Below are positions 39,235 through 56,206 of a DNA stretch of 64,000 bases, piece after piece. The DNA lies in assembly GCA_039698055.1 (NCBI GenBank), contig JBDKTL010000021.1:66837-130836 (forward strand), in the 5' to 3' direction. The notes under the pieces were generated by a model, which was given only the letters and a program-made list of their open reading frames with translations, ran no database searches and had not been told where the DNA came from. This DNA comes from Methanoregula sp. (GTDB taxonomy: Archaea; Halobacteriota; Methanomicrobia; Methanomicrobiales; Methanospirillaceae). The stretch's first letter is position 1. Each line of letters opens with the position of its first letter. The translations under genes and the position numbers were made by a program.

Positions 39235-39341
39235 AGGAATACAAATGTTAGCCCTTGGGATTAATAAATGATCTGTTCTCCGCGTTTGAGGAAGCGGGGG
39301 TGACGGCTCTTTTTTATGTCCCGCGATGTCAGTATTAACCA

Positions 39342-40310: not shown

Positions 40311-40403
40311 CCTTCTGGCATAAAAAAAGTTATGTCTGGTTCTTGTTGTAAGTCCAATCATGAAAGATTTAAGCCGGCACTGACAATCTGAGTGAGACCA
40401 GAT

Positions 40404-40901
40404 ATGAAAAATTTTTATCTTATTATTGCGTGCCTCTGCCTGTGTGCATTCGCCGTTCTCCCTGTGCAGGCGTTTACTGCCAATTCTCTCACGATCACGG
40501 TGGCAGAGAATGGCGACGCACATGCCGATATGCAGTACTCCCTTTCATTCATCGAGCAGGCCGCCGTATTTGCCCATATCGCAGACCCCTCCGCACAGCT
40601 TGAAGGGGCGCTCAGGAACAATTTCGACAAACCGGTTACGGTTATCCACGCGGACAGCTCATCGGCGGACGTGATCATCCTCTCGTTTGCCACGGTTGCA
40701 GCATCCCCGGGCCAGACAACAATGACAACCCCGTCACTCTCGTTTGCACGGGCACAGGACGTTGTAAAACAGTACTGGTTTGCACCGCTCATTTCAGCGG
40801 ACTTCTCCCCCACGGTGACGACCATCATCTTCCCGGACGGGTACCGTGTGACCTACAACGATCTCCTGACAATCCCGTCAACTTCGCACCAGATTGCGTA
40901 A
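40404..40901 (+). CDS. Secreted hypothetical protein
   Basis: Signal peptide ending PVQA; 165 aa. Confidence 0.7.
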   Translation: MKNFYLIIACLCLCAFAVLPVQAFTANSLTITVAENGDAHADMQYSLSFIEQAAVFAHIADPSAQLEGALRNNFDKPVTVIHADSSSADVIILSFATVAASPGQTTMTTPSLSFARAQDVVKQYWFAPLISADFSPTVTTIIFPDGYRVTYNDLLTIPSTSHQIA

Positions 40902-41146
40902 GGATAATTCCCTGTTCCGGGTACCGGATGGTACCGGACAGGACAAAAAATATTTTTTTCTTTTTTTTAGGGATTTCCCGGGCAGGTATTTTTTTCGATC
41001 ATCCACTGCCGGACTGACGGGTAGGTATCAAAAAAACCGGGCAGGCGGATTTGGGTGCCAGACGCAGGCCATCGCGCCGGTCTCATGGGATGGCAGGGGG
41101 AGGGGGGCATCACACATCGCACGAGAAATTGTTCCTGTACGGGTGG

Positions 41147-41632
41147 GGTACCTCCCTTACCATGAGGTACCCCCTTAGGGGGGTAGGTCGCACTGAGGCA
41201 GGTACCCCTGCAGGGGGGTGTCCCTCAGGGCCAGGTACCCCCCGAGACCCATCCCTCCCCTTTTTGCAGGTTCATTGCCTGTGTTTCGCATGGAGTCTCT
41301 GACGATATCTATTGCACACTTTTTGTTTGAGAAATGGGGGTACCCTGCCGGCCCACCCCTCCCTTATCATGAGGTACCCCCCCAAGGGGGTCTGTCGTAC
41401 TAAGGGAGGTACCCCCTCCCGGGGGTACCTCCCGTACTGCCAGGGACCCCCCACTCCCACCACTCATTTTGGGAAACCGCGTCTCTTCCCGGCCCGTTTT
41501 TCACGACGATAGTGCCTTTCAAGGCCGGGTTTTGACAGGGATGTTTGCCAGACCCACCACTCACTGGTCATGAGGTACCCCCCAGGGGGGGTCTGTCGTA
41601 CTGGGGGAGGTACCCCCCCTGGGGGGTACCTC
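41147..41632. repeat. Three ~65-bp palindromic GGTACC-rich units starting at 41161, 41368 and 41569
   Basis: Consensus catgaggtacccc(c)n-agggggg-t..gtcgYact-.Rgg.aggtacccc...gggggt; 11 GGTACC sites counted in 41147-41630. Confidence 0.9.
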
Positions 41633-41734
41633 TTGTGCTAAAAAAAAGCGGACGGGTAATCGTGAACCCGGACTCATGAAAATCTCCCAATCATTTCAAC
41701 ACGTTTAATGTTGAGGAATTATTAATATCAGTCA

Positions 41735-44700
41735 ATGGCAGTGCCCGAAGCGATCCAGAAACTGGTCGAGAAGTACAGCTTTCATCGCGAGGCATACCTT
41801 CGCGGGCAGGAAAAATACAACGAGACCCAGCTGCGGGAGGACTTTACCGACCCGTTCTTCCGCGCCCTTGGCTGGGACGTGAACAACAACAAGGGATTCT
41901 CGGAAGCCTACCGGGAAGTCCTGCACGAAGAGCCGATCCGGATCCGGGGCACAACGCAGTTTTTTGATTATACGTTCCGGATTGGCGGTACACGGAAATT
42001 CATTGTCGAGACCAAGAAGCCATCCGTCCGGATCAAGGATGATGCCGACGCCGCGTTACAGTTGCGCCGCTATGCGTGGAACGCGAAACTTCCGCTCTCC
42101 ATCCTCACGAACTTCGAAGAGTTCGCGGTCTATGACTGTACGATAAAACCGGAGAACAGCGACGCGGCAAACAAGGGGCGGATCGAGTACTTCACGTACA
42201 GCGAACTTCCCGAAAAGTGGGAATATCTCGAATCCATCTTCGCGCAGGAGAGCATTCTTCGCGGATCGTTTGACAAGTACGCGCTCTCGAACAAGGGGAA
42301 GAAAGGGACGGCGGGAGTCGATGACGATATCCTCTCCGAGATCGAGTCATGGCGGTCTGATCTGGCAAAGAACATCGCGATCAGGAATACCGGGCTCTCT
42401 GTCGAGGAACTCAACAGCATCGTGCAGCGCACCATCGACCGACTCCTGTTCCTGCGCATCTGCGAAGACCGGGGAATCGAAGAGTACCCGACACTGCACA
42501 AACTGCTTGAAGGCGAGCACACCTATGCGCGGCTCTGCGATCTCTTCCGGCACGCGGACGAGAAATACAACTCGGGGCTCTTCCACTTCCAGCAGGAGCA
42601 GGACTCGGACGAACTGCCCGACACCCTCTCGCTCTCGGTGACCATTGACGACAAGACACTCAAAGGCGTCATCAAACGGCTCTACTACCCGGAGACGCCG
42701 TACCTCTTCTCGGTTATCCCGCCGGCAATTCTCGGCCACGTGTACGAGCAGTTCCTCGGGAAAGTGATCCGGCTCACGGACGGCCACCAGGCAAAGGTGG
42801 AGTACAAGCCGGAAGTTAAGAAAGCGGGCGGTGTGTTCTATACGCCGCAGTATATCGTGGAATATATCGTGAAGCACACGGTGGGCGAACTGGTGATAGG
42901 CAAGACGCCCCGCGAGGTTGCGAAGATCCGTATCCTTGATCCCGCGTGCGGTTCCGGTTCATTCTTAATCGGTGCGTACCAGTTCCTGCTTGACTGGCAC
43001 CGGGACTGGTACATCGCAAACCTCGTCCCGGTCTTTAAAGAGAAGAACTCGGCGACCGACCCGGCCGTGCTCGCCCTCCTGCCCGAACCTGCACCAAAGA
43101 CAAAGAAAAAATTCGTGCAGGTCGATCTGCCGATCTACAAGGCCGGCACGAACGGCGATGCGACCCGGACCCGGAGCGACTGGCGGCTCACGACTGCGGA
43201 GAAAAAACGCATTCTTCTCAACAACATCTATGGCGTGGACATCGACCAGCAGGCAGTCGAGGTGACAAAACTCTCGTTGCTCTTAAAAGTGCTTGAAGAG
43301 GAGAATGAAGAGAATATCGAGAAGCAACTGAAACTCTTCGCGGAACGGGCATTACCCTCTCTTCATGATAACATCAAGTGCGGGAACTCGCTGATTGGCT
43401 GGGATGTGATGACCCCGGAGATGCCCGCAGAGGAAGTGAAGCGGATCAATCCGTTTGACTGGGACACGGAGTTTGCCGATATCGTGAAGGCAGGCGGGTT
43501 CGATGCGGTGATCGGGAACCCGCCGTATGTGAGACAGGAATCACTTGGACCGGAATTCAAAGAGTACGCAAAGAAACACTACGAGACATATGCGGGAACT
43601 GCGGATCTGTATGTGTATTTCTTTGAGAGAGGGCATAAATTACTTCGTAAGGACGGGACTTTTGGCATCATTTGTTCGAACAAGTTCATGAGGGCAAATT
43701 ACGGGATGAATTTGCGTCATTTCCTTTCGAACAGCATAAAAATTCTCCAAATAATTGATTTCGGAGAATTGCCTGTATTCCAAAATGCAGCGACATTTCC
43801 AGCGATTTTTATTACTCAAAATACCGTGATAAAAGAACAATCATTTGAATATGCTCCGATTAAAACACTGAATTTTAACTCTCTAGATAATGAGATTAGA
43901 AATACCCGATTATTACTAGATTCCAAATCGCTTACGGGATATAATTGGATTTTCCAACAAACTGCCAATCTGGATATAATTTCAAAAATTAAACAAAAAG
44001 GAATTCCGTTTTCACGATATACCCACTCACAAATTTATCGAGGGATCCTAACAGGATATAATAAAGCATTCTTCATCAACCAGTCCATTAAGGATAAACT
44101 TATTTTAGAAGATAAAAATTCAGATGAAATAATTAAACCTTTAGTCGTTGGTGACGATGTAAGAAAATATCATATTGATTATGAAAACCGTTACTTAATT
44201 TTTTGTAGACGTGGCATTGATATTAAACAGTATCCCGCAATTTTGCGATATTTGGAACAATTTAAACAAGAATTAACCCCGAAACCGGCGGGATGGAAAG
44301 GAACCGATTGGAATGGTCGAAAAGCTGGAGTTTATAATTGGTATGAAATTCAGGATGCTATTGAATATCATGCAGAATTTAATAAAGCAAAAATCATGTG
44401 GCCAGAAATTGCAAAGGAAAGTAGGTTCACATTCGATGATCAAAAAATATATGCTAATGCAAAGGTCTTTTTTACTCCAACTAACGATTTGTATCTCCTT
44501 GGATTATTGAATTCAAAATTAATTTGGTCATTTTTGAAAAATATTTGTTCTGTGCTTGGGGATAGTGATAACGGTGGGAGATTAATGCTACAAAAAATAT
44601 ATGTTGAGCAAATCCCCATCCGCACCATCAACTTCTCCGACCCCGCAGACAAAGCCCGGCACGATAGCATGGTCACGCTCGTGACAAAGATGCTTGACCT

Positions 44701-44878
44701 GAACAAGAAGGTGCAGGACGCCCGCCTCGAACAGGAGAAGACGCTGCTGTCCCGGCAGATCGAGGCGACGGATGCGGCGATTGATACGCTGGTGTATGAG
44801 TTGTACGGACTGACACCGGTGGAGATTGCGATTATGGAAGGACAATCGCATTTGAATTTACCAAAGACGAACCAATAA
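41735..44878 (+). CDS. Type IIG restriction-modification enzyme (fused endonuclease, N6-adenine MTase and TRD)
   Basis: N-terminal D..F...VETKK nuclease, GVFYTP, ILDPACGSGSFL, GNPPY, TaqI-C-like TRD, C-terminal coiled coil IDTLVYELYGLT. Confidence 0.93.
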   Translation: MAVPEAIQKLVEKYSFHREAYLRGQEKYNETQLREDFTDPFFRALGWDVNNNKGFSEAYREVLHEEPIRIRGTTQFFDYTFRIGGTRKFIVETKKPSVRIKDDADAALQLRRYAWNAKLPLSILTNFEEFAVYDCTIKPENSDAANKGRIEYFTYSELPEKWEYLESIFAQESILRGSFDKYALSNKGKKGTAGVDDDILSEIESWRSDLAKNIAIRNTGLSVEELNSIVQRTIDRLLFLRICEDRGIEEYPTLHKLLEGEHTYARLCDLFRHADEKYNSGLFHFQQEQDSDELPDTLSLSVTIDDKTLKGVIKRLYYPETPYLFSVIPPAILGHVYEQFLGKVIRLTDGHQAKVEYKPEVKKAGGVFYTPQYIVEYIVKHTVGELVIGKTPREVAKIRILDPACGSGSFLIGAYQFLLDWHRDWYIANLVPVFKEKNSATDPAVLALLPEPAPKTKKKFVQVDLPIYKAGTNGDATRTRSDWRLTTAEKKRILLNNIYGVDIDQQAVEVTKLSLLLKVLEEENEENIEKQLKLFAERALPSLHDNIKCGNSLIGWDVMTPEMPAEEVKRINPFDWDTEFADIVKAGGFDAVIGNPPYVRQESLGPEFKEYAKKHYETYAGTADLYVYFFERGHKLLRKDGTFGIICSNKFMRANYGMNLRHFLSNSIKILQIIDFGELPVFQNAATFPAIFITQNTVIKEQSFEYAPIKTLNFNSLDNEIRNTRLLLDSKSLTGYNWIFQQTANLDIISKIKQKGIPFSRYTHSQIYRGILTGYNKAFFINQSIKDKLILEDKNSDEIIKPLVVGDDVRKYHIDYENRYLIFCRRGIDIKQYPAILRYLEQFKQELTPKPAGWKGTDWNGRKAGVYNWYEIQDAIEYHAEFNKAKIMWPEIAKESRFTFDDQKIYANAKVFFTPTNDLYLLGLLNSKLIWSFLKNICSVLGDSDNGGRLMLQKIYVEQIPIRTINFSDPADKARHDSMVTLVTKMLDLNKKVQDARLEQEKTLLSRQIEATDAAIDTLVYELYGLTPVEIAIMEGQSHLNLPKTNQ
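44626..44842 (+). repeat. R-M 3'-end repeat, copy 1 (inside the intact gene)
   Basis: Encodes INFSDPADKARHD...VYELYGLTPVEIAIMEG; near-identical DNA downstream. Confidence 0.9.
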
Positions 44879-44893
44879 TCTTCCAAAAAAAAA

Positions 44894-45934
44894 TTATTTT
44901 TTGCAAATAAAATGTTGAGACGTCTCACTTAAAACTGTAGCAATAACGTCTAGTGTATGTGATACTTCATTCGGTAAAATCTCAAGTTCGGAACCCGGTT
45001 CCAAGTAATTATGAGCCTTTTCAAGATATTTTTCATCTACAAGTCCAAGATTGTGTGTTAAAACGTGTCTTTTCAAAAATTGTTCTTCGAGGAACAGCCT
45101 ATCCTCTTCGGATATTTTTGAATAAATGTCATATTTCAAATCATCCAAAAAGAGTTTTTGAGCGCCATCGATTCGTTGAAAAGTCACTCGAATTCTCTCT
45201 TCTTTTTTATCTGCATCCTCTTTTGAAAAATTGTTATGAATGCCGTAAAGATAAATCCGTTTTAGAAATCCTTCGAAAATACCAACAACATCCTCTAATG
45301 CGTTTCCGATCATTCTTTGTGCGACGTCTGGCCCATATTTTGACTGTGAGTTCTCACTTTCCTTAATTAAAACATGAGTTATGTCCACATTTCGATTAAG
45401 ATGCAGAATTAAATTGCCTTGACCACAAAATGGACAATGAACGGAAATTCCATAGACTGCATACTGAAAACCGCAATTATCGCAAGTAACTTTGCGTTTC
45501 AATTTTTCTTCGGTGTAGAATCTAACATTGGGAAGGGACCCTGGTTCAAACGATATTTCTAAAGAAGAATTTGTATTTGACTCGGATTTAAAATCTTTTG
45601 CGACGTTTTCTAACATTGTTTGTACTGCAATCGCCATATCGCGATAGATCATTGATTCAATCCATTTGCCCTGTTCCATTGTTGGGAACTTTTGTATGTT
45701 ATCGACATGACCACAATATGGGCAAATGATTTCGACGTCAGACATTCTTTGCCCGGTTTTTAAAAATCCCTTGGGGATGTATCCACCTATCTGAAAATAT
45801 TTCGATCCACATTCGGGGTTTGGACATTCGCGTCCTACCATTCCATCTTCATTGGGTTTTAACGGGATTTCCATTTCAACAAGTGTCCCTGATCCGCTCG
45901 TTTGGTATTTTTTCATGTCATGAAATATTTCCAT
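44894..45934 (-). CDS. Multi-zinc-ribbon protein with C-terminal HEPN-like RxxxxH motif
   Basis: CPNPEC, CPYC, CDNC, CPFC; KRHVLTHNLG; AT-rich. Confidence 0.75.
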   Translation of the reverse strand: MEIFHDMKKYQTSGSGTLVEMEIPLKPNEDGMVGRECPNPECGSKYFQIGGYIPKGFLKTGQRMSDVEIICPYCGHVDNIQKFPTMEQGKWIESMIYRDMAIAVQTMLENVAKDFKSESNTNSSLEISFEPGSLPNVRFYTEEKLKRKVTCDNCGFQYAVYGISVHCPFCGQGNLILHLNRNVDITHVLIKESENSQSKYGPDVAQRMIGNALEDVVGIFEGFLKRIYLYGIHNNFSKEDADKKEERIRVTFQRIDGAQKLFLDDLKYDIYSKISEEDRLFLEEQFLKRHVLTHNLGLVDEKYLEKAHNYLEPGSELEILPNEVSHTLDVIATVLSETSQHFICKK

Positions 45935-45965
45935 AATTCCTCGTAAGATTGTTCGGATGAAAAAA

Positions 45966-46226
45966 TTAGGAAATGGTGTATTCTTTCCATGGAACCGCGT
46001 GGAGAGGAACGTTTGCCATAAATTTTGCAATATCCGGTCGTCCAAAATACGTTGGAATACCATTGGAATCTTGCGCCATTAGAACAACTGGCATTCTTGG
46101 GAATGCCGGTTGAAAATTCCGAATCGCATCTTCGGCCGTTGATCTGTTGTCCACAACATGTTTCTTCACAATAACAATAGCAAATGTGATTCCTTGTTCT
46201 TTGATTACAGAACCCTGAAATTTCAT
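45966..46226 (-). CDS. Small hypothetical protein (86 aa), upstream partner of the Zn-HEPN gene
   Basis: MKFQGSVIKEQGITFAIVIVK...PWKEYTIS, GGAGG RBS. Confidence 0.75.
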   Translation of the reverse strand: MKFQGSVIKEQGITFAIVIVKKHVVDNRSTAEDAIRNFQPAFPRMPVVLMAQDSNGIPTYFGRPDIAKFMANVPLHAVPWKEYTIS

Positions 46227-46334
46227 TTTACCCTCCCTATGCGAGATTATATTTGACATCAATATGATGGAATATATAGCAAACAGTATGGGGTGTGAAA
46301 ATGAATACTGCAGAAAAATCAAAATTTATTTGTC

Positions 46335-46562
46335 GTCAACTTCTCCGTACCGGTTGACAAAGCCCGGCACGACCGCATGGTTTCCCTCGTCACCCAGATA
46401 CTTGACCTGAATAAGAAGGTGCAGGACGCCCGCCTCGAACAGGAGAAGACGCAGTGGTCCCGGCAGATCGTGGCGACGGATGCGGCGATTGATAAACTGG
46501 TGTATGAATTGTACGGGCTAACGGAGGAGGAGATTGTGGTTGTGGAAGAGAGCGGGAAATGA
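46335..46562 (+). repeat. R-M 3'-end repeat, copy 2 (full length)
   Basis: VNFSVPVDKARHDRMVSLVTQILDLNKKVQDARLEQEK...VYELYGLTEEEIVVVEESGK*. Confidence 0.92.
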
Positions 46563-46996
46563 AAATCTACATGGATGTCTGCTGCCTGTGCAGGCCGTTT
46601 GATGACCAGGCCCTGGGGCGCATCCGTCTGGAAGTAACCGCCGTTCAGGAGATCATCCGGCGCTGCGCATCGCGGGAATATACGCTGGTCACGAGCGAAG
46701 CGATAACGGAAGAACTCTCAAAAATTCCCGATATCTGGAAGCGGCTTCGCGTGGAGAAGATCGTATCCGTTGCAAAAGAACAGGTACTCATTGACGAGAA
46801 TATAATCGCCCGTATGCATGAGATCATCGCAATGGGCGGAGATGCGATGGACTCGCTTCATATTGCCTGTGCAGAACGTGCCGGAGCAGTCCTTCTCACC
46901 ACAGATGACGGCATGATAACATTTTTTAAGTTGCATCAGAACATACAGGTACCTATAGAAAACCCGGTTACCTGGTTAAAGGAGGAAAACAGATGA
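46559..46996 (+). CDS. PIN domain (VapC-like) toxin
   Basis: KIYMDVCCLCRPFDDQ...E...DSLHIACAE...LLTTDD. Confidence 0.88.
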   Translation: MKIYMDVCCLCRPFDDQALGRIRLEVTAVQEIIRRCASREYTLVTSEAITEELSKIPDIWKRLRVEKIVSVAKEQVLIDENIIARMHEIIAMGGDAMDSLHIACAERAGAVLLTTDDGMITFFKLHQNIQVPIENPVTWLKEENR

Positions 46997-47202
46997 GCGC
47001 CCGAACATTGCATCAGATCCAGCAGGAAGGACTCGACGTGCTGGTTGAGAAACTTGGCCCCGACGATGCGATCCGGTTCCTCCAGATCTATGAAACAGGC
47101 CGCGGTGACTGGACAAAAGACCGGAAACAAATCCTTGAAAACGATCCGGATAAAATTATCAAAAGCATCATGGCGCGAAGAAAAAAAGTCCCGGCTCCAT
47201 GA
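46993..47202 (+). CDS. Putative antitoxin paired with the PIN toxin
   Basis: 69 aa, GLDVLVEKLGPDDAIRFL...GDWTKDR; ATGA overlap with the toxin. Confidence 0.75.
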   Translation: MSARTLHQIQQEGLDVLVEKLGPDDAIRFLQIYETGRGDWTKDRKQILENDPDKIIKSIMARRKKVPAP

Positions 47203-47255
47203 ATAGTTCTCCTCTTTTTTCCTGGCACATTCAGTTTGCTCCCTGTCCATGCCTC

Positions 47256-47486
47256 ATCCTCAGCTTCGCCGACCCCGCAGACAAAGCCCGGCATGACCTC
47301 ATGGTCTCCCTCGTCACGCAGATGCCTGACCTGAACAAAAAGGTGCAGGACGCCCGTCTCGAACAGGAGAAGACGATGCTCCATCGGCAGGTTGAGGCAA
47401 CGGATGCGGCGATCGATAAACTGGTGTACGAGTTATACGGGCTGACTGAGGAGGAGATTGGGATTGTGGAGGGGACGGAGAAATGA
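47256..47486 (+). repeat. R-M 3'-end repeat, copy 3 (full length)
   Basis: ILSFADPADKARHDLMVSLVTQMPDLNKKVQDARLEQEK...VYELYGLTEEEIGIVEGTEK*. Confidence 0.92.
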
Positions 47487-48061
47487 GAATATTGGAAATT
47501 ATCGATTTGCCTAAAAAAATTCTGTTTATGCTCTTCGCAATTTACGTAATTTCAGGAATAATATCAATAATCCTAACGCGCGGTTCTTTCTATTCAACTG
47601 GAAATTTTTGGAACTGGGGATTTCAAGAACCAATTTTGTTAACATTTCCCTCCGTTTTCATTTGCTTGACAATTATCTTTCTCGTTGGTGTATATGCTTC
47701 CCATCAAAAGACAAAGATCGGGGGTGTTCGATTTTCGGCGAGAAAAACACCTAAATATGGATCGGTTCCAATCGGAGATTTACCGTATGCTGACGTTATT
47801 TGGAAGATAGTTGGCTTAAAAGAATTTCCATGGGATTCACGAGAGACAATAACTCCTGAACAAATCGAAGTCGAAGACACTCCTCGCTGTCCTGAATGTG
47901 GTACTGAACTTACACAATCCCAGACATTTTTTAAAAAGTACTTGTGGACTTGTGTAAACTGCGGGTTCAAATTAAAAAATTCAAATGGTTTTTCCGTCGA
48001 AAAAGAGAGCGCAAGAAAAAAAGCAAAACGTCAATGGGAAATAAAAAATGACCCAACATGA
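47483..48061 (+). CDS. Two-TM protein with C-terminal zinc ribbon
   Basis: Two hydrophobic helices; CPECG...CVNCG; AT-rich. Confidence 0.7.
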   Translation: MRILEIIDLPKKILFMLFAIYVISGIISIILTRGSFYSTGNFWNWGFQEPILLTFPSVFICLTIIFLVGVYASHQKTKIGGVRFSARKTPKYGSVPIGDLPYADVIWKIVGLKEFPWDSRETITPEQIEVEDTPRCPECGTELTQSQTFFKKYLWTCVNCGFKLKNSNGFSVEKESARKKAKRQWEIKNDPT

Positions 48062-48068
48062 AATTGCC

Positions 48069-48125
48069 GATCTGTATGGATTGACTGATGAGGAGATTGC
48101 GATTGTGGAAGGGTGTGCGAAATGA
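48069..48125 (+). repeat. R-M 3'-end repeat, copy 4 (short remnant)
   Basis: Encodes DLYGLTDEEIAIVEGCAK*. Confidence 0.82.
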
Positions 48126-48439
48126 CCGGACATGAAAATAATCTGATAAGAAAAAGCACCGCAGAATTCCTGATATTTACTTCAACCGCCGGTGAAGAGT
48201 CGATCGAAGTCAGGTACGAGGATGCAACGATCTGGCTAAGCCAGAAGATGATGGCTGCGCTCTTTGATGTGAAGATTCCGACAATAAACGTACACTTAAA
48301 AAACATTTATTAGAGCGGTGAACTGACCCGCAAAGCAACTATGAGGAAATTCCTCATAGTTCGTACTGAAGGAAACCGCGACGTTTCACGGAATCTTGAA
48401 TACTATAGTCTTGATGCCTGGTATTGGAAGCCCTCTTAA
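48122..48439 (+). pseudogene. RhuM-family protein fragment
   Basis: EFLIFT...TIWLSQKMMAALF...NVHLKNIY*SGEL...RTEGNRDVSRNLEYYSLDA; internal TAG at 48311, then truncation. Confidence 0.8.
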
Positions 48440-48697
48440 AAAAAACAAATGATACACAACCGCTCCCCCTGTAATACCGGTTTCACTCAAAGCAGCGGGA
48501 GGTCTCCCCCAGCAAGAGCAACAACCAGAAAAAGGAGAAGAACCCTAACTCAGTAGTAAGTCCAGATGCCCGCCGCATGTTCCCTATGGCTTGATGCAGG
48601 ATTCAAAACCAATTACCTGTTCAGGATAAACACTCGGGAGATCATAACGTCGCACGGCGTTAGCAGATTAAAAAACCGCAAGTGAGGAGATAAAAAA

Positions 48698-49834
48698 ATG
48701 CCAGGAAAACCCGAAAAATCCAAAAGTCCGTCACCCGGAGAACCCCTCCTCCCCCTCGTCAAAGAAATCCGGGATCTGGTGCAAAGCGCACGCAGGACTG
48801 CCACACAGAATGTCAACACCCTGCAGGTCGTTACAAATTTCGAGATTGGCCGGCGGATCGTGGAATATGAACAACGGGGAAGCCTTCGGGCGGAATACGG
48901 GGAGCGAATATTCGATGAACTTTCACAACGATTGACACATGAAGTTGGGAAGGGGTTTTCGACGAGAAATTTGAGATACATGCGCGACTTTTATATCGAA
49001 TATCGCGAGACCGTACCCCAAATTCCCCAAACAGTGTCTGGGCAATTGCCGGCCAAAACACCGACTGATACGCCAATTATGCAGACACTGTCTGCAAAAT
49101 TGACACCCAATTTCACCCTCAGCTGGTCGCACTATATCGTCCTCATGAATATCGACAACCGGGATGAGCGCCGGTTTTACGAGATCGAATCCCAACAAAA
49201 CCAGTGGTCGCTTTCCGAGCTCAAACGGCAGTTCAACTCCGGAATCTATGAACGACTCGCGCTCAGCCGGGATAAAAAAGGAGTAAAAGCCCTCGCAGAT
49301 AAAGGACAGATCATCGGAAATCCGCAGGACGTGCTCAAAGATCCCTATGTTCTCGAATTCCTCGGGCTTGATGAGAATACGCACTACTCCGAGAGCGATC
49401 TCGAATCCGCCATCATCGATAAACTGGAAATATTTCTCCTGGAACTCGGCAAAGGATTTCTCTTCGAATCCCGGCAGAAACGGTTCACCTTCGATGCCGA
49501 TCATTTCTATGTGGACCTCGTCTTCTACAACCGCATCCTCCGGTGCTATGTCCTGATCGACCTCAAGATAGGAAAACTCACGCACGAGAACCTCGGCCAG
49601 ATGCAGATGTACGTCAATTATTACAACCGCGAGGTAAAACTCGACGATGAGAACCCGACTATCGGAATGATCCTCTGCAAGACAAAGAGCGACGCTCTCG
49701 TCAAACTCACCCTGCCGGAGAATGCGAACATCTACGCTTCCCAGTATCAACTTTACCTCCCCTCAAAAGAGGAACTGAAGAAGAAACTGATCGAATGGTC
49801 AGAAACTGCTCTCAACACTTCGGAGGCTGGGTAA
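48698..49834 (+). CDS. DUF1016/YhcG PD-(D/E)XK nuclease-domain protein
   Basis: EIGRRIVE, GFSTRNL, LSWSHY, KDPYVLEFL, LLELGKGF, VDLVFY, LIDLK, GQMQMYVNYY. Confidence 0.92.
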   Translation: MPGKPEKSKSPSPGEPLLPLVKEIRDLVQSARRTATQNVNTLQVVTNFEIGRRIVEYEQRGSLRAEYGERIFDELSQRLTHEVGKGFSTRNLRYMRDFYIEYRETVPQIPQTVSGQLPAKTPTDTPIMQTLSAKLTPNFTLSWSHYIVLMNIDNRDERRFYEIESQQNQWSLSELKRQFNSGIYERLALSRDKKGVKALADKGQIIGNPQDVLKDPYVLEFLGLDENTHYSESDLESAIIDKLEIFLLELGKGFLFESRQKRFTFDADHFYVDLVFYNRILRCYVLIDLKIGKLTHENLGQMQMYVNYYNREVKLDDENPTIGMILCKTKSDALVKLTLPENANIYASQYQLYLPSKEELKKKLIEWSETALNTSEAG

Positions 49835-49855
49835 CTCGTGATGAGGTTCAGGTTC

Positions 49856-49955
49856 GAAGCGACGGATGCGGCGATTGATACGCTGGTGTACGAGTTGTAC
49901 GGGCTGACACCGGGAGGAGATTGCGATTGTGGAAGGAAAGAACAAGAAAGATTAA
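49856..49955 (+). repeat. R-M 3'-end repeat, copy 5 (partial, 1-nt insertion)
   Basis: EATDAAIDTLVYELYGLTP/EEIAIVEGKNKKD*. Confidence 0.87.
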
Positions 49956-50036
49956 GCAATGAGAGGTTAAATCCAAAACAATTGATTTTACTTGAAAAAT
50001 TAAAATTATAATTCTTAAAAGGGCGGGAAGTCAGTA

Positions 50037-50951
50037 ATGGGCGAGATCAGGCTGTATAAATCATCTGGTAAATCTGTCACTGAACTTAAAGGTTCTTCAA
50101 TTTCCGTGGAAAAAACATTACAATCCTTTATCGAATCTCATCTAAATGAGATCCTTGGAGTCCGCTTCCTGAAGTCAGAACATTCAACCGGTAAAGTTCA
50201 TGGTGGACGAATTGACACGCTCGGGATTGATAGAAAAGGAAATCCGGTTATCATCGAATATAAAAGATCGATGAATCAGATCATCGTTATTCAGAGTTTA
50301 TCCTATCTTTCCTGGCTTGACGATCATCACGCCGATTTTGAACTGTTAGTCCTAAAAAAATTCGGGAAAGAAGTTGCCGATAAAATCAGATGGGAAAACC
50401 CGCGGTTATTGTGTATCGCAGCGGATTTTTTAAAATTTGATATTCAGTCGTTGCCGAGGATCCACTCCCAGATTGAACTCATCAAATACAAGAATTACCC
50501 TCCGGATATTTTCCTTTTAGAATGGGTAAACGAAACTTCCCCTGATTCATTTCCGTTACCTGCAAATGGCGATGAAGGGAAGAAAGTAATATCCTATAAA
50601 ACCGTTGAGGAATATCTCGCGGCCTGCAATCCCGATGTTCAGAACCGCTATAAATCCCTTAAGGCATTCACCGAAGGATTCGGTAATGATGTTAAGGTTA
50701 AGGTGTTGAAATTTTACATTGCTTTCAAACGAACGAAAAATTTCATGTGTGTAGAATTTGACCCGCTAACGGACGAAATAAGAATTTTCCTTAAAATCGA
50801 TCCAAAATCTATCAAAATCGAAAAAGGCTTTTCCAGGGATGTTAGCAATATCGGACATTATTCTACAGGCAATTTGGAATTGATAATAAAATCCGATAAA
50901 GATCTTGAAAAAGCAAAGCCATTCATAACTAATAGTTATAATAAGATGTGA
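50037..50951 (+). CDS. NucS-like endonuclease fused to DUF5655-like domain
   Basis: EKTLQ, GRIDTLG, VIIEYK, Q...Y; C-terminal YIAFK...RDVSNIGHY..G. Confidence 0.82.
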   Translation: MGEIRLYKSSGKSVTELKGSSISVEKTLQSFIESHLNEILGVRFLKSEHSTGKVHGGRIDTLGIDRKGNPVIIEYKRSMNQIIVIQSLSYLSWLDDHHADFELLVLKKFGKEVADKIRWENPRLLCIAADFLKFDIQSLPRIHSQIELIKYKNYPPDIFLLEWVNETSPDSFPLPANGDEGKKVISYKTVEEYLAACNPDVQNRYKSLKAFTEGFGNDVKVKVLKFYIAFKRTKNFMCVEFDPLTDEIRIFLKIDPKSIKIEKGFSRDVSNIGHYSTGNLELIIKSDKDLEKAKPFITNSYNKM

Positions 50952-50987
50952 TTTGGTCTCGCTTTGAATTTTTAATTAGTCAAGGTT

Positions 50988-51347
50988 TTACCTCGGCAGC
51001 CCCATCGGCGTTATTGCATCCGCCAGCAAATGGAACAGATATCCAAGGAAAAAACAGGATGCTAGATAAAATCCTGAAAACTCTGAAAAGAATGCGACCA
51101 CAAGGGTAATCAGTGCTGTTAAGCCAAACAGGAAAAACATTACAATGAGTGCCCCGACACTATGGAATAATCTCCGATGCCGGAAACTGGTTGCGGGTTC
51201 GATAATATCAGGAATAAGCGATCCAATTACAACCACAATTATTCCCCAAATCCACTGATTATTGATCGAACTGACAATGTGGCCGATAAAATAAGCATAA
51301 ACGAAAAATACAATGATCCCAATCCCTGTATGCTCTCCGGAATTCAT
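50988..51347 (-). CDS. Membrane metal-dependent hydrolase (YdjM-like)
   Basis: EH, GSLIPD, HRRLFHS, HLLADAITPMG. Confidence 0.8.
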   Translation of the reverse strand: MNSGEHTGIGIIVFFVYAYFIGHIVSSINNQWIWGIIVVVIGSLIPDIIEPATSFRHRRLFHSVGALIVMFFLFGLTALITLVVAFFSEFSGFYLASCFFLGYLFHLLADAITPMGLPR

Positions 51348-51424
51348 TTCTGGTTTTCATTAAAATCCGGGCAACATAAGGATTACGGCATGTGTTGTGA
51401 AAGTATCGGTGAATGGATAATTTT

Positions 51425-51961
51425 TTAATAAAACCTGAACCCCTCTCTCTTGAACATCTCCAGATGACTCAAACAAGGAATCCCGAGCTTCGCGCACACA
51501 TCCGGGATCTTCTCGATCTCAGCATCACGGAGGCCCGGGTTCCCGGCCAGTTTGCTCTTTTCTTCAGCAACGACAACAACCGTCCGGGGCTCGAAGTGGC
51601 TCTGCTTTGCCAGTTTCATCGCGAGGCCGATCACAAAGGGATCTGCATGATCCGGCTTCTGGGAACTTGCCTGTGCTGTCCGGATAAATCTGTTGACAAC
51701 AACACCGGTTGTTGCCAGTAATTCCGGACCAATGCTCACAAACATCCCGCTATGATCGTTCACCCAGTCCTTCAGATCGTCATCCTGCCGGTTGATCTCG
51801 CTCTTCACATATTCCGGGGCAACAATCCTGCCATCATGGATGAGCGCTTCGATATCCTTCCAGATGCCCGGAAGCATCTTCTCGGGATAGCGCTTGTGGA
51901 CTTCGATAAGAAAAGAAGTGTCTGCAACATAAAGAAAAAGGGGTTCACCTGATTCAGACAT
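51425..51961 (-). CDS. DUF4411 family PIN-like protein
   Basis: YVADTSFLI, VKSEI, ADPFVIGLA, KIPDVC. Confidence 0.85.
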   Translation of the reverse strand: MSESGEPLFLYVADTSFLIEVHKRYPEKMLPGIWKDIEALIHDGRIVAPEYVKSEINRQDDDLKDWVNDHSGMFVSIGPELLATTGVVVNRFIRTAQASSQKPDHADPFVIGLAMKLAKQSHFEPRTVVVVAEEKSKLAGNPGLRDAEIEKIPDVCAKLGIPCLSHLEMFKREGFRFY

Positions 51962-53161
51962 TTACGCGCCCATCGATTCCTGGAACTTTTCCAGATGACG
52001 GAGCTTGATATCGAGATAATCAAGGGCATCGCTGTTACTGATATGACCTTTCCGGACATTCTCCATGACAAGTGAGACATATCCGGCACCTTTTTCCGCC
52101 ACGCATTTCCGGTCCAGTGAAATACCGCCAAAGCTGCCCTCTTCCTCGTCACCGGCCTGTTCTTTCTTTTTCTTCTCCGCTTCCTGCAATGCGTATTCTG
52201 CACGCAGCTGATCTCTTCCCATAATGTATTGCACAGAGGAAATCTTCTTCAGCGTGAGCAGCCGCATCAGCCCGGCTTCCTTGCTGATCAGGAAGCGCTG
52301 CCGGATCGAACCTGCAGCCCGTAAATAATTCCCGGATTCAAGTGCATGAAGGATCACCGGGTTCTCTTCTATCTCCTTTTGGGGTGCAAGGAGCGCACCG
52401 GCAAAATGGTTGCACCAGCGTTCGACCCCGGAGTACTCTTCAAGATCGTTCTCACCCTGGTTACATACTACCGGCATATTCAGGAGAATATGAGCATATT
52501 CATGGAACAATGTAAAGAGCCGGGCACGATCTGCATCAGAGGAATTCACAACGATTACATATGGTTCACCGTCTGTAAGGGAAAAACCCCGGGCATCATC
52601 AACCGGCATCTTGATCTTTAAGACCGAGATGTTCTGGGACTCAAGCCATTCACGCCAGATATCAAATGCCTTTACCGGGGTTATGCCCGCCAAATCACCA
52701 GATATCCGGATACCGGAACGCTCACGTTCCTGTCGTGCTACTTCTTCGGGATCCTCTTTCAGAGTTCTGATCTTCAGGGAGGCTTTTGAAGGGAGGTTCA
52801 GATTGTCCGTCAACTCATGGTGGATCTCTTGTATCCGTCTCGCTTTGCGGATTGCCAGGAGTAGTTCTTTGGAATAGCTGGTGTCGGAATCCGGATGCCG
52901 CCGGAAATCTTTGGGAAGGTTTGGTTCTTCTGGAGGCTCTGAAAGAAGAAATGCCGCGAGAGGGCGGCGAAACATCTCGGAGAGCTGCTCAACTTTCGTG
53001 AGGGGGATTACCAGTTTCTCTGCCCCGTTGCACCATGACCTGACTACACGTTCTGGCACACCAAGTCTCTTGGAGATATCAGGAGGTGCAAAGCCCGAAC
53101 TAGCACAAAGCCACTGGAATACATCAGGTACAATGACAACATCGGGAGATGAGCGGGACAT
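51962..53161 (-). CDS. HTH + ImmA/IrrE (M78) metallopeptidase
   Basis: N-terminal XRE-like HTH, DFR, RGFSL, FTLFHEYAH, ERWCNHFAGALL. Confidence 0.9.
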   Translation of the reverse strand: MSRSSPDVVIVPDVFQWLCASSGFAPPDISKRLGVPERVVRSWCNGAEKLVIPLTKVEQLSEMFRRPLAAFLLSEPPEEPNLPKDFRRHPDSDTSYSKELLLAIRKARRIQEIHHELTDNLNLPSKASLKIRTLKEDPEEVARQERERSGIRISGDLAGITPVKAFDIWREWLESQNISVLKIKMPVDDARGFSLTDGEPYVIVVNSSDADRARLFTLFHEYAHILLNMPVVCNQGENDLEEYSGVERWCNHFAGALLAPQKEIEENPVILHALESGNYLRAAGSIRQRFLISKEAGLMRLLTLKKISSVQYIMGRDQLRAEYALQEAEKKKKEQAGDEEEGSFGGISLDRKCVAEKGAGYVSLVMENVRKGHISNSDALDYLDIKLRHLEKFQESMGA

Positions 53162-53225
53162 AGAACTATACAAGAGATTTTTTTATAATCTATTAAAAGA
53201 TACCCAGAGTTGACAGCGTGAAAGT

Positions 53226-53266
53226 GATCGCATGATTGCTCTCGTCACTCAGATACTCGATTTGAA
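53226..53266 (+). repeat. R-M 3'-end repeat, copy 6 (short remnant)
   Basis: gatcgcatgattgctctcgtcactcagatactcgatttgaa = DRMIALVTQILDL, compare DRMVSLVTQILDL in copy 2. Confidence 0.75.
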
Positions 53267-53369
53267 AAGTGGTTGAGAGAACGCCCGTGCCCGGCAGGGA
53301 AAGAACACACCGGATATCGTGTACGAAGACCTCTGCTTTGACTGCGAACAGGCAGCAAAAAAAAGCAGC
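53264..53369 (+). pseudogene. HEPN gene remnant
   Basis: EKWLR / ARARQGKNTPDIVYEDLCFDCEQAAKKS matches SRAKLGKENPEIFYEDLCFDCQQAGEKS of the HEPN at 2698-3081. Confidence 0.78.
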
Positions 53370-53371
53370 AC

Positions 53372-54163
53372 TTACTTCGTATAATACGCCGCGTCCACCA
53401 GCGCTTTCCAGTATTCATCGCACCCATCGGTGCAATATCCCCCGGCCATAACCTGATCCGGATCGAGATGCAAAAGTGCGTGCTTAACCGATCCCTCATC
53501 CGGGTCCATCACGATCAACTGGTGGAGTTCGTATTCGTTTGCCAGGTCAAAGACAATTTTCAGCTGCTCTTTTCCCACTGCAATCCGGCGCTGGTACTCC
53601 ATTAACGTTTCAAGACTGTTCCGGTCCGGCTTTTGCTGGAAGAAAAAAACCGTATGTGAAGCAAGCGATGAAACTGCTGCTTCATCCACCCGCTCACTGA
53701 TGAGGACATGCCCTTTAATACCGGCATCCCGCTGCGCCCGCATCAGATCGGCATATACGCAGTTGATCGCATCATACCACTCATCCTTGTCATTATAGTA
53801 GCAGTCCGTCATCCCAAGAGCGCCCGGCGCCGGCATCGCACACCAGACATGCTTTTTCTGTGCCACAAGCCTGCGGGCATCCTCGATGAGCGGTTGTGGA
53901 TCGACGTACAGATCGTCAACCACGCTCATATCCTTCATCCCCTTCACGCAGTCGAGAACCCGGTCCTTCGTGAACATGCCCCCGCCGCACGGCTCCGTGA
54001 TCCCAGCGGCACACTGCGGGGAGAGGGATTGTTCGAGGAGATATGCGTGCAGGTCGGCAGACTTCCCGCGATGGTGTGCCACCCAGTCCGCAAGCGCGGT
54101 AACGTCCGGCACGCCGGGCTCTGCGCCAAACGCCCGGGTTAACAGATTTACCCTCTTTGCCAT
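53372..54163 (-). CDS. Hypothetical protein, possibly distant methionine-synthase-like barrel
   Basis: 263-aa ORF with host-like codon usage, divergent from metG. Confidence 0.65.
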   Translation of the reverse strand: MAKRVNLLTRAFGAEPGVPDVTALADWVAHHRGKSADLHAYLLEQSLSPQCAAGITEPCGGGMFTKDRVLDCVKGMKDMSVVDDLYVDPQPLIEDARRLVAQKKHVWCAMPAPGALGMTDCYYNDKDEWYDAINCVYADLMRAQRDAGIKGHVLISERVDEAAVSSLASHTVFFFQQKPDRNSLETLMEYQRRIAVGKEQLKIVFDLANEYELHQLIVMDPDEGSVKHALLHLDPDQVMAGGYCTDGCDEYWKALVDAAYYTK

Positions 54164-54205
54164 GGTATATGAATTATTACGTATCAGCATCTAAAAAGTA
54201 CCACA

Positions 54206-56194
54206 ATGAATACGCCACCGCTGCTGGTTACCTGCGGGCTCCCGTACACAAACGGTCCCTGCCATCTTGGGCATCTGCGAACGTACGTCCCCGCCGACTG
54301 TTACGTCCGCTACATGCGGCGGACGGGTGAAGAGGTCGTATTTGTCTGCGGCTCGGACAACCACGGCACGCCGATTGTCGTATCTGCCGAAGAGCAGGGC
54401 ATCTCGCCCCGCGAACTCTCCGAGCGGTACCATAAGCATTTCGATGAGACCTTCAAACGCATGGAAGTCATGTTCGACCATTTCGGCATGACCGACGACC
54501 CGGCCAACCACCACAGGACACAGGCCATCGTGCAAAAACTCGAAAATAACGGCCACATCTACAAGCAGGTGGTACACCAGGCATACTGCACGAAATGCAA
54601 ACGGTTCCTCCCGGACCGTTACGTCGAGGGAATCTGTCCCCATTGCGGAAAACCGGCACGTGGCGATGAATGCGACCAGGGGTGCGGCAAACACCTCGAA
54701 CCCGGCGAGATCAAGAACCCGGTCTGCAAGGTCTGTGGTACCCGTGCGGAGTTCCGGGACCAGGAGCATTATTTCTTCCGGCTTTCGGCGTTCAAAGACT
54801 TCCTCCTGCCATACCTTGACACCCTGAAAGGAACCGGCACCGCAAAGAATTACGCAATCGGCTGGATCAGGGAAGATCTTCACGACTGGTGTATCACCCG
54901 CACGCTTGAGTGGGGCGTGAAATTCCCGGGCCGGAGCGATCTGGTCGTCTATGTCTGGGTCGATGCCCCCATCGGCTACATCGCGTTTACCGAGGAATGG
55001 GCAAAAAAATCCGGCAAAGACTGGAAACAGTACTGGTGCGGGGATAACCGGGTCACGCATTTTATCGGCGGCGACATCATCTACCACCACTGTATCTTCT
55101 GGCCGGCGCTCCTCAAAGGGGCAGGATATGGCGTGCCGTACGCAGTCGTCGCAAGCGGGATGGTGAAAGTCGACGACCATAAATTCTCAAAGTCCCGGGG
55201 ATACGTGGTCTGGACAAACGACGATTACCTTGACAAGGGGCTCTCGCCGGAGTATTTGCGGTATTACCTGCTTGCGTACACCAACCACACAAAGGAGCTC
55301 AACTTCTCGTGGAAGGTGTTCCAGGAGCGGATCAACAACGAGGTTGTCAATATATTCGGCAACTTTGTCTACCGCACGCTCTTTTTCGCCCACAAGGAAT
55401 TCGAGGGCGTGCCTGAGGGCAAAGCCGATGCGGCAACGATGGCCGAGATCCAGAAATGCCTTGATGCGGTCGATGCGGCAATGAAGAACTACGAGTTCAA
55501 GATCGCCGTGGACGCAGTCATGAGCCTTGCCGCGTTTGGCAATACCTACATCCAGACCAATGCGCCGTGGAAACTCATCAAGACCGACCGGGCGGCGGCA
55601 ACGCAGGTGATACGGAACTGCGTGCAGGTCGTAAAAGCTCTTGCTCTCCTGATCCAGCCGGTGATGCCCGAGAAGGCGCAGGAGTGCTGGGCGATGTTAG
55701 GCTACTTTGATTTTGTGGCAACCCATCCGGTGTCGGATGCCACCTATGATGTGCCCAATGTCTGTATCAAGCCACCCCACCCGCTCTTTGTAAAGATGGA
55801 AGATGCACAGGTGGCAGAACTGGACGCACTGCTCCAGAAGCGTGTCGCGGAGGCGAACAAAAAGATGGAAAAAACACCCGCCCTTACCATTGAGGATTTT
55901 GGAAAAGTCGAGATGAAGACCGGCAAAGTGCTCGCCGCAGAAGCGATCCCCAAGTCAAGCAAGCTGCTGAAATTGCAGGTCGATATCGGGGGAGAGACAC
56001 GCCAGATCGTGAGCGGCATCGCCCCGTTCTACAAACCTGAAGAACTGGTGGGAAAAGATGTGATCGTGCTGACCAACCTTGCCCCGGCAAAGATCTTCGG
56101 TGTCGAGAGCAACGGGATGATCCTTGCCGCGGGCGATGCGGCATCGCTGCTCACCCCGCTCAAACCCGTAGAACCGGGGACAAAGATCCGGTAA
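54206..56194 (+). CDS. metG: Methionine--tRNA ligase
   Basis: LPYTNGPCHLGH, zinc knuckles, YVWVDAPIGY, KFSKS, C-terminal tRNA-binding OB domain. Confidence 0.98.
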   Translation: MNTPPLLVTCGLPYTNGPCHLGHLRTYVPADCYVRYMRRTGEEVVFVCGSDNHGTPIVVSAEEQGISPRELSERYHKHFDETFKRMEVMFDHFGMTDDPANHHRTQAIVQKLENNGHIYKQVVHQAYCTKCKRFLPDRYVEGICPHCGKPARGDECDQGCGKHLEPGEIKNPVCKVCGTRAEFRDQEHYFFRLSAFKDFLLPYLDTLKGTGTAKNYAIGWIREDLHDWCITRTLEWGVKFPGRSDLVVYVWVDAPIGYIAFTEEWAKKSGKDWKQYWCGDNRVTHFIGGDIIYHHCIFWPALLKGAGYGVPYAVVASGMVKVDDHKFSKSRGYVVWTNDDYLDKGLSPEYLRYYLLAYTNHTKELNFSWKVFQERINNEVVNIFGNFVYRTLFFAHKEFEGVPEGKADAATMAEIQKCLDAVDAAMKNYEFKIAVDAVMSLAAFGNTYIQTNAPWKLIKTDRAAATQVIRNCVQVVKALALLIQPVMPEKAQECWAMLGYFDFVATHPVSDATYDVPNVCIKPPHPLFVKMEDAQVAELDALLQKRVAEANKKMEKTPALTIEDFGKVEMKTGKVLAAEAIPKSSKLLKLQVDIGGETRQIVSGIAPFYKPEELVGKDVIVLTNLAPAKIFGVESNGMILAAGDAASLLTPLKPVEPGTKIR

Positions 56195-56206
56195 CTTTTT
56201 TTTTTA
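56195..56206 (+). terminator. Oligo-T archaeal terminator after metG
   Basis: T-run immediately after the TAA. Confidence 0.55.

Follow-up and report, generated by a model that had tools for sequence, protein, structure and literature searches.

The stretch of DNA analysed here, in the following called the window, comprises 64,000 nucleotides (nt) from Methanoregula sp. (GenBank assembly GCA_039698055.1, contig JBDKTL010000021.1, positions 66,837 to 130,836 of the forward strand). It contains a Type IIG restriction-modification (R-M) gene, and downstream of it a row of defence and toxin-antitoxin (TA) genes between which the 3' end of the R-M gene itself recurs. The encoded protein combines an N-terminal nuclease, an N6-adenine methyltransferase, and a target recognition domain (TRD) in one chain, which assigns it to Type IIG. 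Pfam recognized HSDR_N, Eco57I (E 9e-49), and TaqI_C in it, and the PADLOC model REase_MTase_IIG spans residues 6-1031, that is end to end, with E 6e-219. The part of the gene beyond TaqI_C is termed the tail, and copies of it detached from an R-M gene are termed orphan tails. The gene, its tail, and the downstream tail copies are located as follows.

41735-44878, plus strand: Type IIG R-M gene, 1047 amino acids (HSDR_N-like N-terminus, Eco57I methyltransferase, TaqI_C TRD, C-terminal tail)
44612-44854, plus strand: reference tail, the last ~80 codons of the R-M gene, beyond TaqI_C, defined by repeat and homology searches
46328-46562, plus strand: tail copy 1, near full length, with the open reading frame (ORF) 46377-46562; 82-85% identity to the R-M tail
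47247-47486, plus strand: tail copy 2, full length, ORF 47199-47486 of 95 amino acids; 83% identity to the R-M tail
48068-48125, plus strand: tail copy 3, the last 17 codons only, a 58-nt 3' piece with 78% identity to copy 2
49850-49954, plus strand: tail copy 4, beginning at tail codon 55 and carrying a 1-nt insertion; 60-nt core 49854-49913 with 95% identity to the R-M tail of this genome
about 53223-53270, plus strand: tail copy 5, degenerate, from tail codon ~23, with an in-frame stop; weak when taken alone

Tail copies were sought by repeat finding in the window and by whole-genome blastn, tblastn, and blastx. The tail of ~230 nt was found to recur five times downstream of the R-M gene, every time on the plus strand, with two copies of full length and three truncated or degenerate. 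The repeat search matched 44620-44841 of the R-M tail to 46328-46549 (82%) and 47252-47473 (83%), and whole-genome blastn yielded E values of 1e-65, 3e-61, 1e-28, and 0.003 for the first four copies. The fifth, which is fused to an N-terminal HEPN remnant, reached only E 0.35 in genome-wide tblastn and E 1.3e-4 in blastx against an orphan tail ORF, but it is supported by its context, because the same IrrE gene in the related genomes G089 and G006 precedes a tail also starting at codon 24. Thus the original prediction, made from the letters of this stretch alone, was right in placing five co-oriented copies here, the proximal ones full length and the distal ones truncated or frameshifted, and in having them mark the boundaries of the cargo. 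The stop codon of copy 1 overlaps the start of the following PIN gene (ATGA), that of copy 2 the start of the gene for a 192-amino acid protein, and that of copy 3 the start of a RhuM fragment, and the junction at copy 4 (RF[ED]A...) is also present in the relative G001. Exact runs of 40, 25, and 32 nt join the R-M tail to copies 1, 2, and 4, respectively. The matching patch of copy 4 has 3 differences in 60 nt from the R-M tail of this genome and about 10 in 60 from its G001 counterpart; the DUF1016 flank of this copy is 92% like G001, unlike the patch. This is an indirect hint of past exchange between tails.

The R-M alleles of the genus are built from parts of very different conservation. 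The 5' 1.8 kb of the gene has 75-82% nucleotide identity to congener alleles (80-82% in the comparison with core-gene identity) and the tail 79-84%, whereas the TRD (about 43630-44600) has no nucleotide match among them. As the alleles share the 5' part and the tail but not the TRD, the tail is the sole homology available downstream of the TRD. The GC content is 0.57 in the conserved 5' part and 0.39-0.46 in the TRD. Deoxyribonucleic acid (DNA) contigs of the source metagenome fit the 5' part up to 43499-43539 and then continue with unlike sequence; this is the point where the congener alleles lose similarity, and other TRD alleles, or a paralogue on contig C16 of the same genome, probably coexist in the source community. 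No solved structural homologue of the tail was found by sequence, the hits CamA, BseCI, and PglX matching the methyltransferase-TRD region only, and a Pfam scan of tail ORFs gave no match at all.

The arrangement is not unique to this locus. All strong tail matches in the genome either belong to the end of an R-M gene or are located downstream of such a gene, so that the copies are not scattered at random. On contig C16 a further complete R-M gene precedes an orphan tail by 1.5 kb, contig C26 has a pair of orphan tails at its end, and contig C48 a remnant. The C16 paralogue (G000:C16:77562-82413; L002 5560-10411) is a Type IIG protein of 1046 amino acids, 57% identical to that of the window; it is followed by DUF6978 and DUF1828/1829 genes and then by the orphan tail, and this three-gene block (F21-F23) was also seen in the array of G019.

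In the genus, 100 of 108 Methanoregula genomes scanned have a tail match. The matches listed number 150, and 47 further ones lay outside this list; among the matches listed, 52 of 150 fall into frames shorter than 250 amino acids, in about 30 of the 108 genomes. Mapping of 32 loci of the genus yielded 67 tail hits, 14 in ORFs of more than 600 amino acids and 53 in short frames, about five of the latter being R-M ends, contig-edge cuts, or R-M stumps. All mapped tails are co-oriented with each other. Where a full R-M gene is present, in 14 loci, all orphan tails, at least 32, are downstream of it and none is upstream; in G001:C109, for instance, the R-M gene is followed by five. The start falls among the first 12 tail codons in 35 of the 53 short-frame copies, and for most of these early-starting copies an intact unrelated cargo gene ends 0-110 nt upstream, with at least 14 different upstream contexts. 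An in-frame insertion of 21 codons lies midway along the helix in an orphan tail of G019 (L018 13345-13629). In G056:C89 (L030 6977-8471) RhuM and one tail were seen, and no R-M gene, at the same site where G001 has its R-M gene with five tails, the flanks F38 and F39-F43 being common to both; an array can therefore persist, or be seeded, without its R-M gene.

Beyond the genus, 81 of 401 sampled genomes of the phylum have a tail match, and all five loci fetched from three other families show an R-M gene with downstream tails, six of them in G323. The orphan tails of the other families carry the R-M tail variant of their own lineage and not one universal site. In G323:C12 the R-M gene is directly followed by three tail fragments of 105 nt each (codons 48-82; L046 9539-10557), which are spaced at about 455 nt and form a short-period tandem within the array. 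The protein database holds 721 small (52-167 amino acids) homologues of the tail ORF; among the matches listed, 5 of 120 contain TaqI_C, and those which bear a name are called hypothetical.

The cargo between the tails of the window, and the island as a whole, consist of the following features.

40902-53403, no strand: whole island of dispersed repeats, R-M gene, and cassette array, between core genes; delimited by empty sites in relatives
44894-46322, minus strand: cargo block 1, a 389-amino acid zinc-ribbon protein (PADLOC PDC-M14A) and a 118-amino acid ORF; GC 0.37
46559-47202, plus strand: PIN gene (46559-46996, Pfam PIN) and 69-amino acid partner (46993-47202), with 4-nt overlaps
47483-48061, plus strand: 192-amino acid protein; hydrophobic segments N-terminally, CxxC pairs C-terminally, weak zinc-ribbon matches
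48113-48417, plus strand: RhuM 5' fragment, the first ~99 codons with one in-frame TAG; 87% identity to G001 RhuM
48423-49939, plus strand: DUF1016/YhcG block with attached truncated tail, gene 48698-49834 (Pfam; PADLOC PDC-S02)
50037-53173, mixed strands: DUF5655 (plus; PADLOC PDC-S18), YdjM (minus), DUF4411 (minus), IrrE/M78 (minus; PADLOC RmrA-like), named by Pfam and PADLOC
53282-53366, plus strand: HEPN remnant, residues ~29-56, at the distal edge of the island; 79% identity over 28 amino acids to a G019 HEPN protein, E 5e-13

The cargo names were checked with Pfam, PADLOC, or NCBIfam, and PIN, DUF1016/YhcG, DUF5655, YdjM, DUF4411, and IrrE/M78 were confirmed. Most of the names initially proposed hold, except that the 389-amino acid protein had been called HEPN, while only weak zinc-ribbon matches and PADLOC PDC-M14A were found for it. 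The DUF5655 protein has a weakly NucS-like N-terminus. The references for the two broken genes are sound, G001 RhuM being Pfam Virulence_RhuM with E 1e-110 and the G019 HEPN protein being Pfam-confirmed. From 46377 to 48061 five ORFs, namely tail, PIN, 69-amino acid partner, tail, and membrane zinc-ribbon protein, are chained by 4-nt ATGA overlaps; five cargo genes of the window are on the strand opposite to the R-M gene. The GC content per module ranges from 0.37 to 0.57, with 0.37 in two cargo blocks. Contigs from ribonucleic acid (RNA) libraries, of runs from the same study as the likely source, cover several cargo genes with 100% identity, where carry-over of DNA is possible. One spans 45540-46204 in cargo block 1 and another, 47399-47584, bridges the junction of tail copy 2 and the 192-amino acid gene. 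The R-M gene is sparsely covered by the RNA contigs. One DNA contig (run X1) fits from 46994, the start of the PIN partner, onwards and has 255 unlike letters before, so the partner-tail block has another upstream context in the same sample.

Comparison of the arrays shows that their cargo is modular. The families encountered are of defence or TA type and include PIN, HicAB, MNT-HEPN, MazE-PIN, DUF4258 with an MqsA-like partner, RhuM, SLFN/AlbA_2, and NERD, further GmrSD-HNH, an E2-E1-JAB fusion, DUF1016, DUF5655, DUF6978 with DUF1828/1829, IrrE with DUF4411, Bro-N, and DUF5677. In arrays outside the window, cargo such as RhuM, PIN, SLFN-like, and other genes starts 3-13 nt past a tail end. 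The same cassettes were met in different order. The succession of tail, PIN, partner, and tail, which in the window is collinear with G001:C109 at 78-79% and also occurs in G059, is preceded by the 389-amino acid block in the window, by a HicAB cassette in G001, and by a RhuM cassette in G062. DUF1016 with a tail cut at codon 55 follows the RhuM fragment in the window and a NERD gene in G001, and IrrE followed by a tail cut at codon 24 is found in the window, G089, and G006. RhuM, SLFN/AlbA_2, IrrE, DUF1016, and MNT-HEPN cassettes each have different neighbours in several genomes, as expected from the proposal that relatives would show variable cargo in variable order between the tails. An E2-E1(ThiF)-JAB fusion of 816 amino acids, a protein of 236-256 amino acids, and RhuM recur together as a conserved cassette of three genes in both the G019 and the G063 array (L018 8975-13262 and L022 5044-9265); in G019 the middle protein ends in a 14-amino acid tail-like sequence, and its stop overlaps the RhuM start.

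The association was also examined blind to the tail, by searching the genus with a RhuM query and then inspecting the flanks. In the close RhuM subfamily a tail or tail end is located within 71 nt upstream in six of nine loci, or in seven of nine with the 14-amino acid fragment of G019 included, which is fused to the gene before RhuM, and a tail is located within 160 nt downstream in six of eight. In distant RhuM subfamilies an adjacent tail was found in 2 of 19 loci. Cassettes are also more alike between species than the chromosomes which harbour them. The core genes flanking the island have 73-76% nucleotide identity to G001, G019, and G006, and cassettes have 79-92%: the DUF1016 block 91.7% over 1523 nt to G001:C109, IrrE 87.8% over 1319 nt to G019, and the RhuM piece 87-88%, with tails at 75-84%. 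Arrays with shared cassettes are located at other chromosomal sites, that of G019 being 140 kb from the metG region. The cassette identity above that of core genes indicates horizontal exchange.

The R-M gene and its array together constitute the island. In G001 and G006 the sequence corresponding to 39144-40291 of the window abuts that of 53406-56205 with a gap of about 56 nt, the gene 39342-40310 directly adjoining the 272-amino acid gene 53372-54190. In G019 the segment 40500-40845 lies 172 nt from 53404, and the homologue of 40392-40901 adjoins the 272-amino acid gene. These empty sites in three relatives identify about 12.5 kb (40.9-53.4 kb) as an insertion. An island targeted to a transfer RNA (tRNA) gene was considered and rejected, as there is no tRNA gene at the border; the tRNA-Phe (GAA) gene at 39160-39235 on the minus strand is 1.7 kb outside the island, with two core genes in between. 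Just upstream of the R-M gene, at 41133-41645, three G+C-rich copies of ~200 nt each were noticed, rich in GGTACCCC/GGGGGTACC palindromes. Arrays are not the only setting of the GGTACCCC repeats, related copies of which were met on 8 contigs; one such copy (C26:31976-32526) is beside the C26 orphan tails and another (C38:25317-25794) about 1 kb from a tyrosine recombinase gene (C38:23895-24389). This palindromic element may be a border of the island or resemble miniature inverted-repeat transposable elements (MITEs).

The first proposal described the array as integron-like and as independent of a recombinase. Concerning the latter, no tyrosine recombinase (PF00589) is present on the contig of the window, C21, the five of the genome being elsewhere and none of them within 55 kb of the C16 array. 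No recombinase was found among about 50 array ORFs scanned, a survey which did not include a search aimed at transposase families across the whole window, nor in arrays from about 20 genomes. When six tail segments were folded as DNA, the z scores relative to shuffled sequences ranged from -1.1 to +1.5 and no attC-like structure emerged; the tails have no inverted repeats of 30 nt or more, all repeats being direct, and no invariant DNA core is common to the tails of different lineages. The likeness to integrons consists in serial, mostly co-oriented small accessory cassettes behind a fixed platform, punctuated by a repeated element, and many cargo genes are indeed co-oriented and translationally coupled. 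Yet the repeat is coding sequence of the platform gene, five window genes are on the opposite strand, and there is no IntI, attI, or folded attC site; the integron was therefore rejected. The same holds for a TRD shufflon or phase-variable R-M system, which had already been argued against, as no TaqI_C or other TRD was found by Pfam before the orphan copies in the window, the repeats are all direct, and the contig has no tyrosine recombinase.

A further finding, which the earlier proposal had missed along with the wide spread of the arrays and the island nature of the whole locus, was that near-full orphan tails evolve like coding sequence. Among 28 near-full short-frame copies listed, of which about five are R-M ends or remnants, leaving about 23, one has a stop inside the tail, and five of the six stops counted are natural or beyond. 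For orphan tails sharing a junction across species the ratio of nonsynonymous to synonymous substitution rates (dN/dS) was 0.08-0.14 after the PIN partner, 0.08-0.28 after RhuM (with a misaligned G056 row excluded), and 0.24-0.46 after SLFN, compared to 0.13-0.34 for R-M-attached tails; four G056 pairs were dropped owing to indel misalignment, and the PIN, partner, and DUF1016 cargo groups were left out since they mix distant members. The synonymous divergence (dS) of orphan tails, 0.4-2.3, is comparable to that of adjacent cargo. The AlphaFold2 (AF2) model of the ORF of copy 2 has one long helix, residues 26-80, with a predicted local distance difference test (pLDDT) score above 90. The low dN/dS may reflect cycling between attached and orphan state, renewal by conversion, or translated ORFs which matter in themselves; if translated, these could be coupling leaders or small helical proteins.

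Taken together, the locus is best read as an array of displaced 3' ends in a defence island, built and reshuffled by homologous recombination between tails, an interpretation considered probable, if only just. The Type IIG genes of this lineage pair a conserved 5' part and an exchangeable TRD with a conserved tail of ~230 nt. Modules of one to four defence or TA genes, each with a whole or partial tail, would be gained, lost, and swapped by recombination with the tail of the R-M gene, with orphan copies, or with incoming DNA from related arrays. This could proceed by a Campbell-type insertion of a circle of tail piece and cargo, leaving a full tail, the cargo, and a tail truncated where the circle had been closed, or by a double crossover in two flanking tails. 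Structures of the single-crossover type, with full tail, cargo, and a tail cut at a cassette-specific codon, were found for IrrE (codon 24) in three genomes and for DUF1016 (codon 55) in two; the circular intermediate itself is conjectural. The last codons of the tail supply the ATGA stop/start overlap coupling translation of the next gene, and as the tail end carries this overlap, cargo travelling with it would keep its expression signals. That no recombinase was found in the arrays and that tail DNA folds no better than shuffled sequence favours homologous recombination as mechanism. Of the capture platform originally envisaged, the tail-anchored array and the apparent absence of a recombinase stand, whereas recombination is inferred and the comparison to integrons has to be given up. 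Its further suggestion that the newest units are next to the R-M gene agrees with the window but not with G001, where the distal-most copy is intact and the proximal one truncated.

Several observations weigh against this interpretation. No recombination event was seen directly in the source runs, which were viewed as Logan contigs; neither the proposed looping out nor a joint between tails appeared in these contigs, in which rare variants are lost. A site-by-site test for ancestry switches in tails of nine trios gave one at p=0.003 and a second, with the same query, at p=0.05, and none in the other seven. The linkage of tail halves to their neighbours is weak, the identities of the 5' and 3' halves being 0.74/0.80 for pairs with a shared upstream neighbour, 0.70/0.79 for a shared downstream neighbour, and 0.71/0.74 for other pairs, a class which mixes two R-M families. 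At about 75-85% identity the tails, short exact runs excepted, are ill suited to homologous recombination. How each cargo-tail junction was founded in the first place stays unexplained. The identity of RhuM cassettes falls in the spacer directly after the gene and before the tail, so some breakpoints are at gene ends and not in tails. Finally, the intact frames of near-full orphan tails and their dN/dS of 0.08-0.46 imply that something beyond a role as anchor may preserve them.

How else the arrays might have come about has to be judged by the same evidence. That an assembly error created the array is unlikely, and a mis-assembly of this 49-contig metagenome bin at repeated sequence, suggested by the fact that Logan contigs break at four tails, is hardly credible. 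In the read check, which used Logan contigs of two DNA and two RNA runs, from which rare variants are dropped, depth was even across the locus and contigs bridged copy 2 and the stretch from copy 4 to copy 5; the copies differ from each other by 5-20%, and the same build occurs in dozens of independent genomes including single-contig ones such as G041:C1. The arrays could also be passive debris, with whole R-M genes and their partners inserted serially and the older bodies deleted until 3' stumps were left. Stumps which still bear part of a TRD do exist in G059:C15 (164-amino acid frame) and G110:C43 (219 amino acids), G010 has a broken R-M gene, a few of the small homologues retain TaqI_C as stated above, and the distal copies of the window are decayed. 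Random deletion of old R-M genes would not, however, produce the pile-up of starts in the first 12 codons beside intact unrelated genes in so many contexts; no tandem full R-M genes were found in 37 mapped loci, and the orphans are not decaying neutrally, which makes debris an unlikely explanation. Integrative elements are known to accrete in tandem at 3' ends of target genes, and the cassettes might accordingly be non-autonomous elements of this kind, comparable to cis-mobilizable elements (CIMEs) accreting with integrative and conjugative elements (ICEs), which a site-specific recombinase encoded in trans would insert at the R-M 3' end, each bringing a replacement end. The pile-up of 5' boundaries and the five tyrosine recombinases of the genome would suit such elements. 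Against them stand the distance of these enzymes from both arrays and the fact that no such enzyme was found in arrays from about 20 genomes, the length of the repeats (60-240 nt), which diverge with the local R-M variant and have no invariant core, the many truncation points (codons 15-67), and the lack of a folded site, so that this origin seems quite improbable.

A different possibility is that the orphan tails are working genes, encoding a small helical protein or a translated leader and selected together with the adjacent cargo, the repeats being a by-product. This would be compatible with recombination in tails, and it is rather unlikely. The dN/dS of orphans is similar to that of attached tails and their dS is comparable to that of cargo, near-full frames are mostly intact, the overlapping chain of five ORFs in the window includes two tails, AF2 predicts the long helix with confidence, the RNA-library contig bridges copy 2 and the next gene, and most small homologues in the database lack TaqI_C (it was seen in 5 of the 120 listed). 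On the other hand 18 of the 53 short-frame copies begin beyond codon 12 and frameshifts or 3' cuts affect several, yet such copies persist, only two of the five window copies could encode the helix, and RhuM of other subfamilies does without adjacent tail in 17 of 19 loci; no family or structure match points to a function, and low dN/dS could be inherited from an R-M-attached past or from gene conversion. A bolder variant, which is speculative and judged improbable, would see orphan tails as translated micro-proteins copying the C-terminal helix of the R-M enzyme. These would be a common handle which restrains effectors such as PIN, RhuM, SLFN-like, membrane zinc-ribbon, and MNT-HEPN proteins or ties them to the state of the R-M system; each pair of tail and effector would then be a portable module guarding the R-M system, with the DNA repeat doubling as recombination site.

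The array of displaced R-M ends has its closest parallel in contact-dependent inhibition (CDI) and Rhs systems. According to passages of PMC4927057, citing Poole 2011 and Koskiniemi 2014, arrays of orphan toxin and immunity genes after cdiA and rhs are regarded as "displaced 3' ends", with models of a "fossil record of displacement" or of a "silent reserve" reachable by homologous recombination. Here, too, co-oriented pieces matching the conserved part of a main gene line up behind it, each accompanied by a variable module, and both models fit the R-M tail arrays. In CDI and Rhs proteins, as described there, a variable C-terminal toxin domain comes after the conserved stretch, and the main protein is altered by recombination; in the R-M arrays the repeat is the extreme 3' end, the variable part is made up of separate genes from many families, and recombination would leave the main protein as it is. 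The CDI and Rhs arrays, moreover, are described as often holding integrase or transposase genes, none of which was found in the R-M tail arrays.

Insertion with long target duplication, in which R-M-linked units without mobility genes are flanked by direct repeats of more than 30 bp, was put forward by Furuta, Abe, and Kobayashi in 2010 (PMC2853133), in a paper part of which also reports allelic TRD diversity in Type IIG genes. As presented in that part, the R-M system itself is inserted and an arbitrary target duplicated once. In the tail arrays it is the end of the R-M gene itself that serves as target, time and again, and defence genes other than R-M are inserted. Repeats flank every unit, but for single cassettes no pair of filled and empty sites was found, the empty site seen being that of the whole island. 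RhuM-like, HEPN, PrrC, RloC, and DOC effectors embedded in R-M operons have been proposed as a second layer of defence (Anantharaman et al. 2013, PMC3710099); the relevant sections concern bacterial Type I operons and describe no repeated R-M ends or arrays. With ordinary defence islands or hotspots between core genes the locus has in common the empty site of the whole island in three relatives, and it differs by a second, internal level of modularity arising from the repeat of the island's own gene. No description of repeat arrays of R-M 3' ends was found in the literature searched (supplements and subscription journals lying outside the search), nor in the accessible portion of a survey of archaeal R-M systems (PMC10609329).

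By what route defence islands assemble and reorder their genes is an open question, and an integrase, a transposase, or a phage is required in most routes known so far. The conserved end of a host gene itself appears, in dozens of methanogen genomes, as a repeated docking point at which the same cassettes are found reordered. If true, defence repertoires could be built and exchanged in this simple manner without a recombinase, and the logic of displaced 3' ends would be extended from CDI and Rhs systems to R-M systems and to archaea. The genes between tail copies are thus candidates for archaeal defence genes, of which few are known, and purifying selection on the orphan tails raises the question whether a fragment of an R-M enzyme has turned into a small regulatory or adaptor protein.

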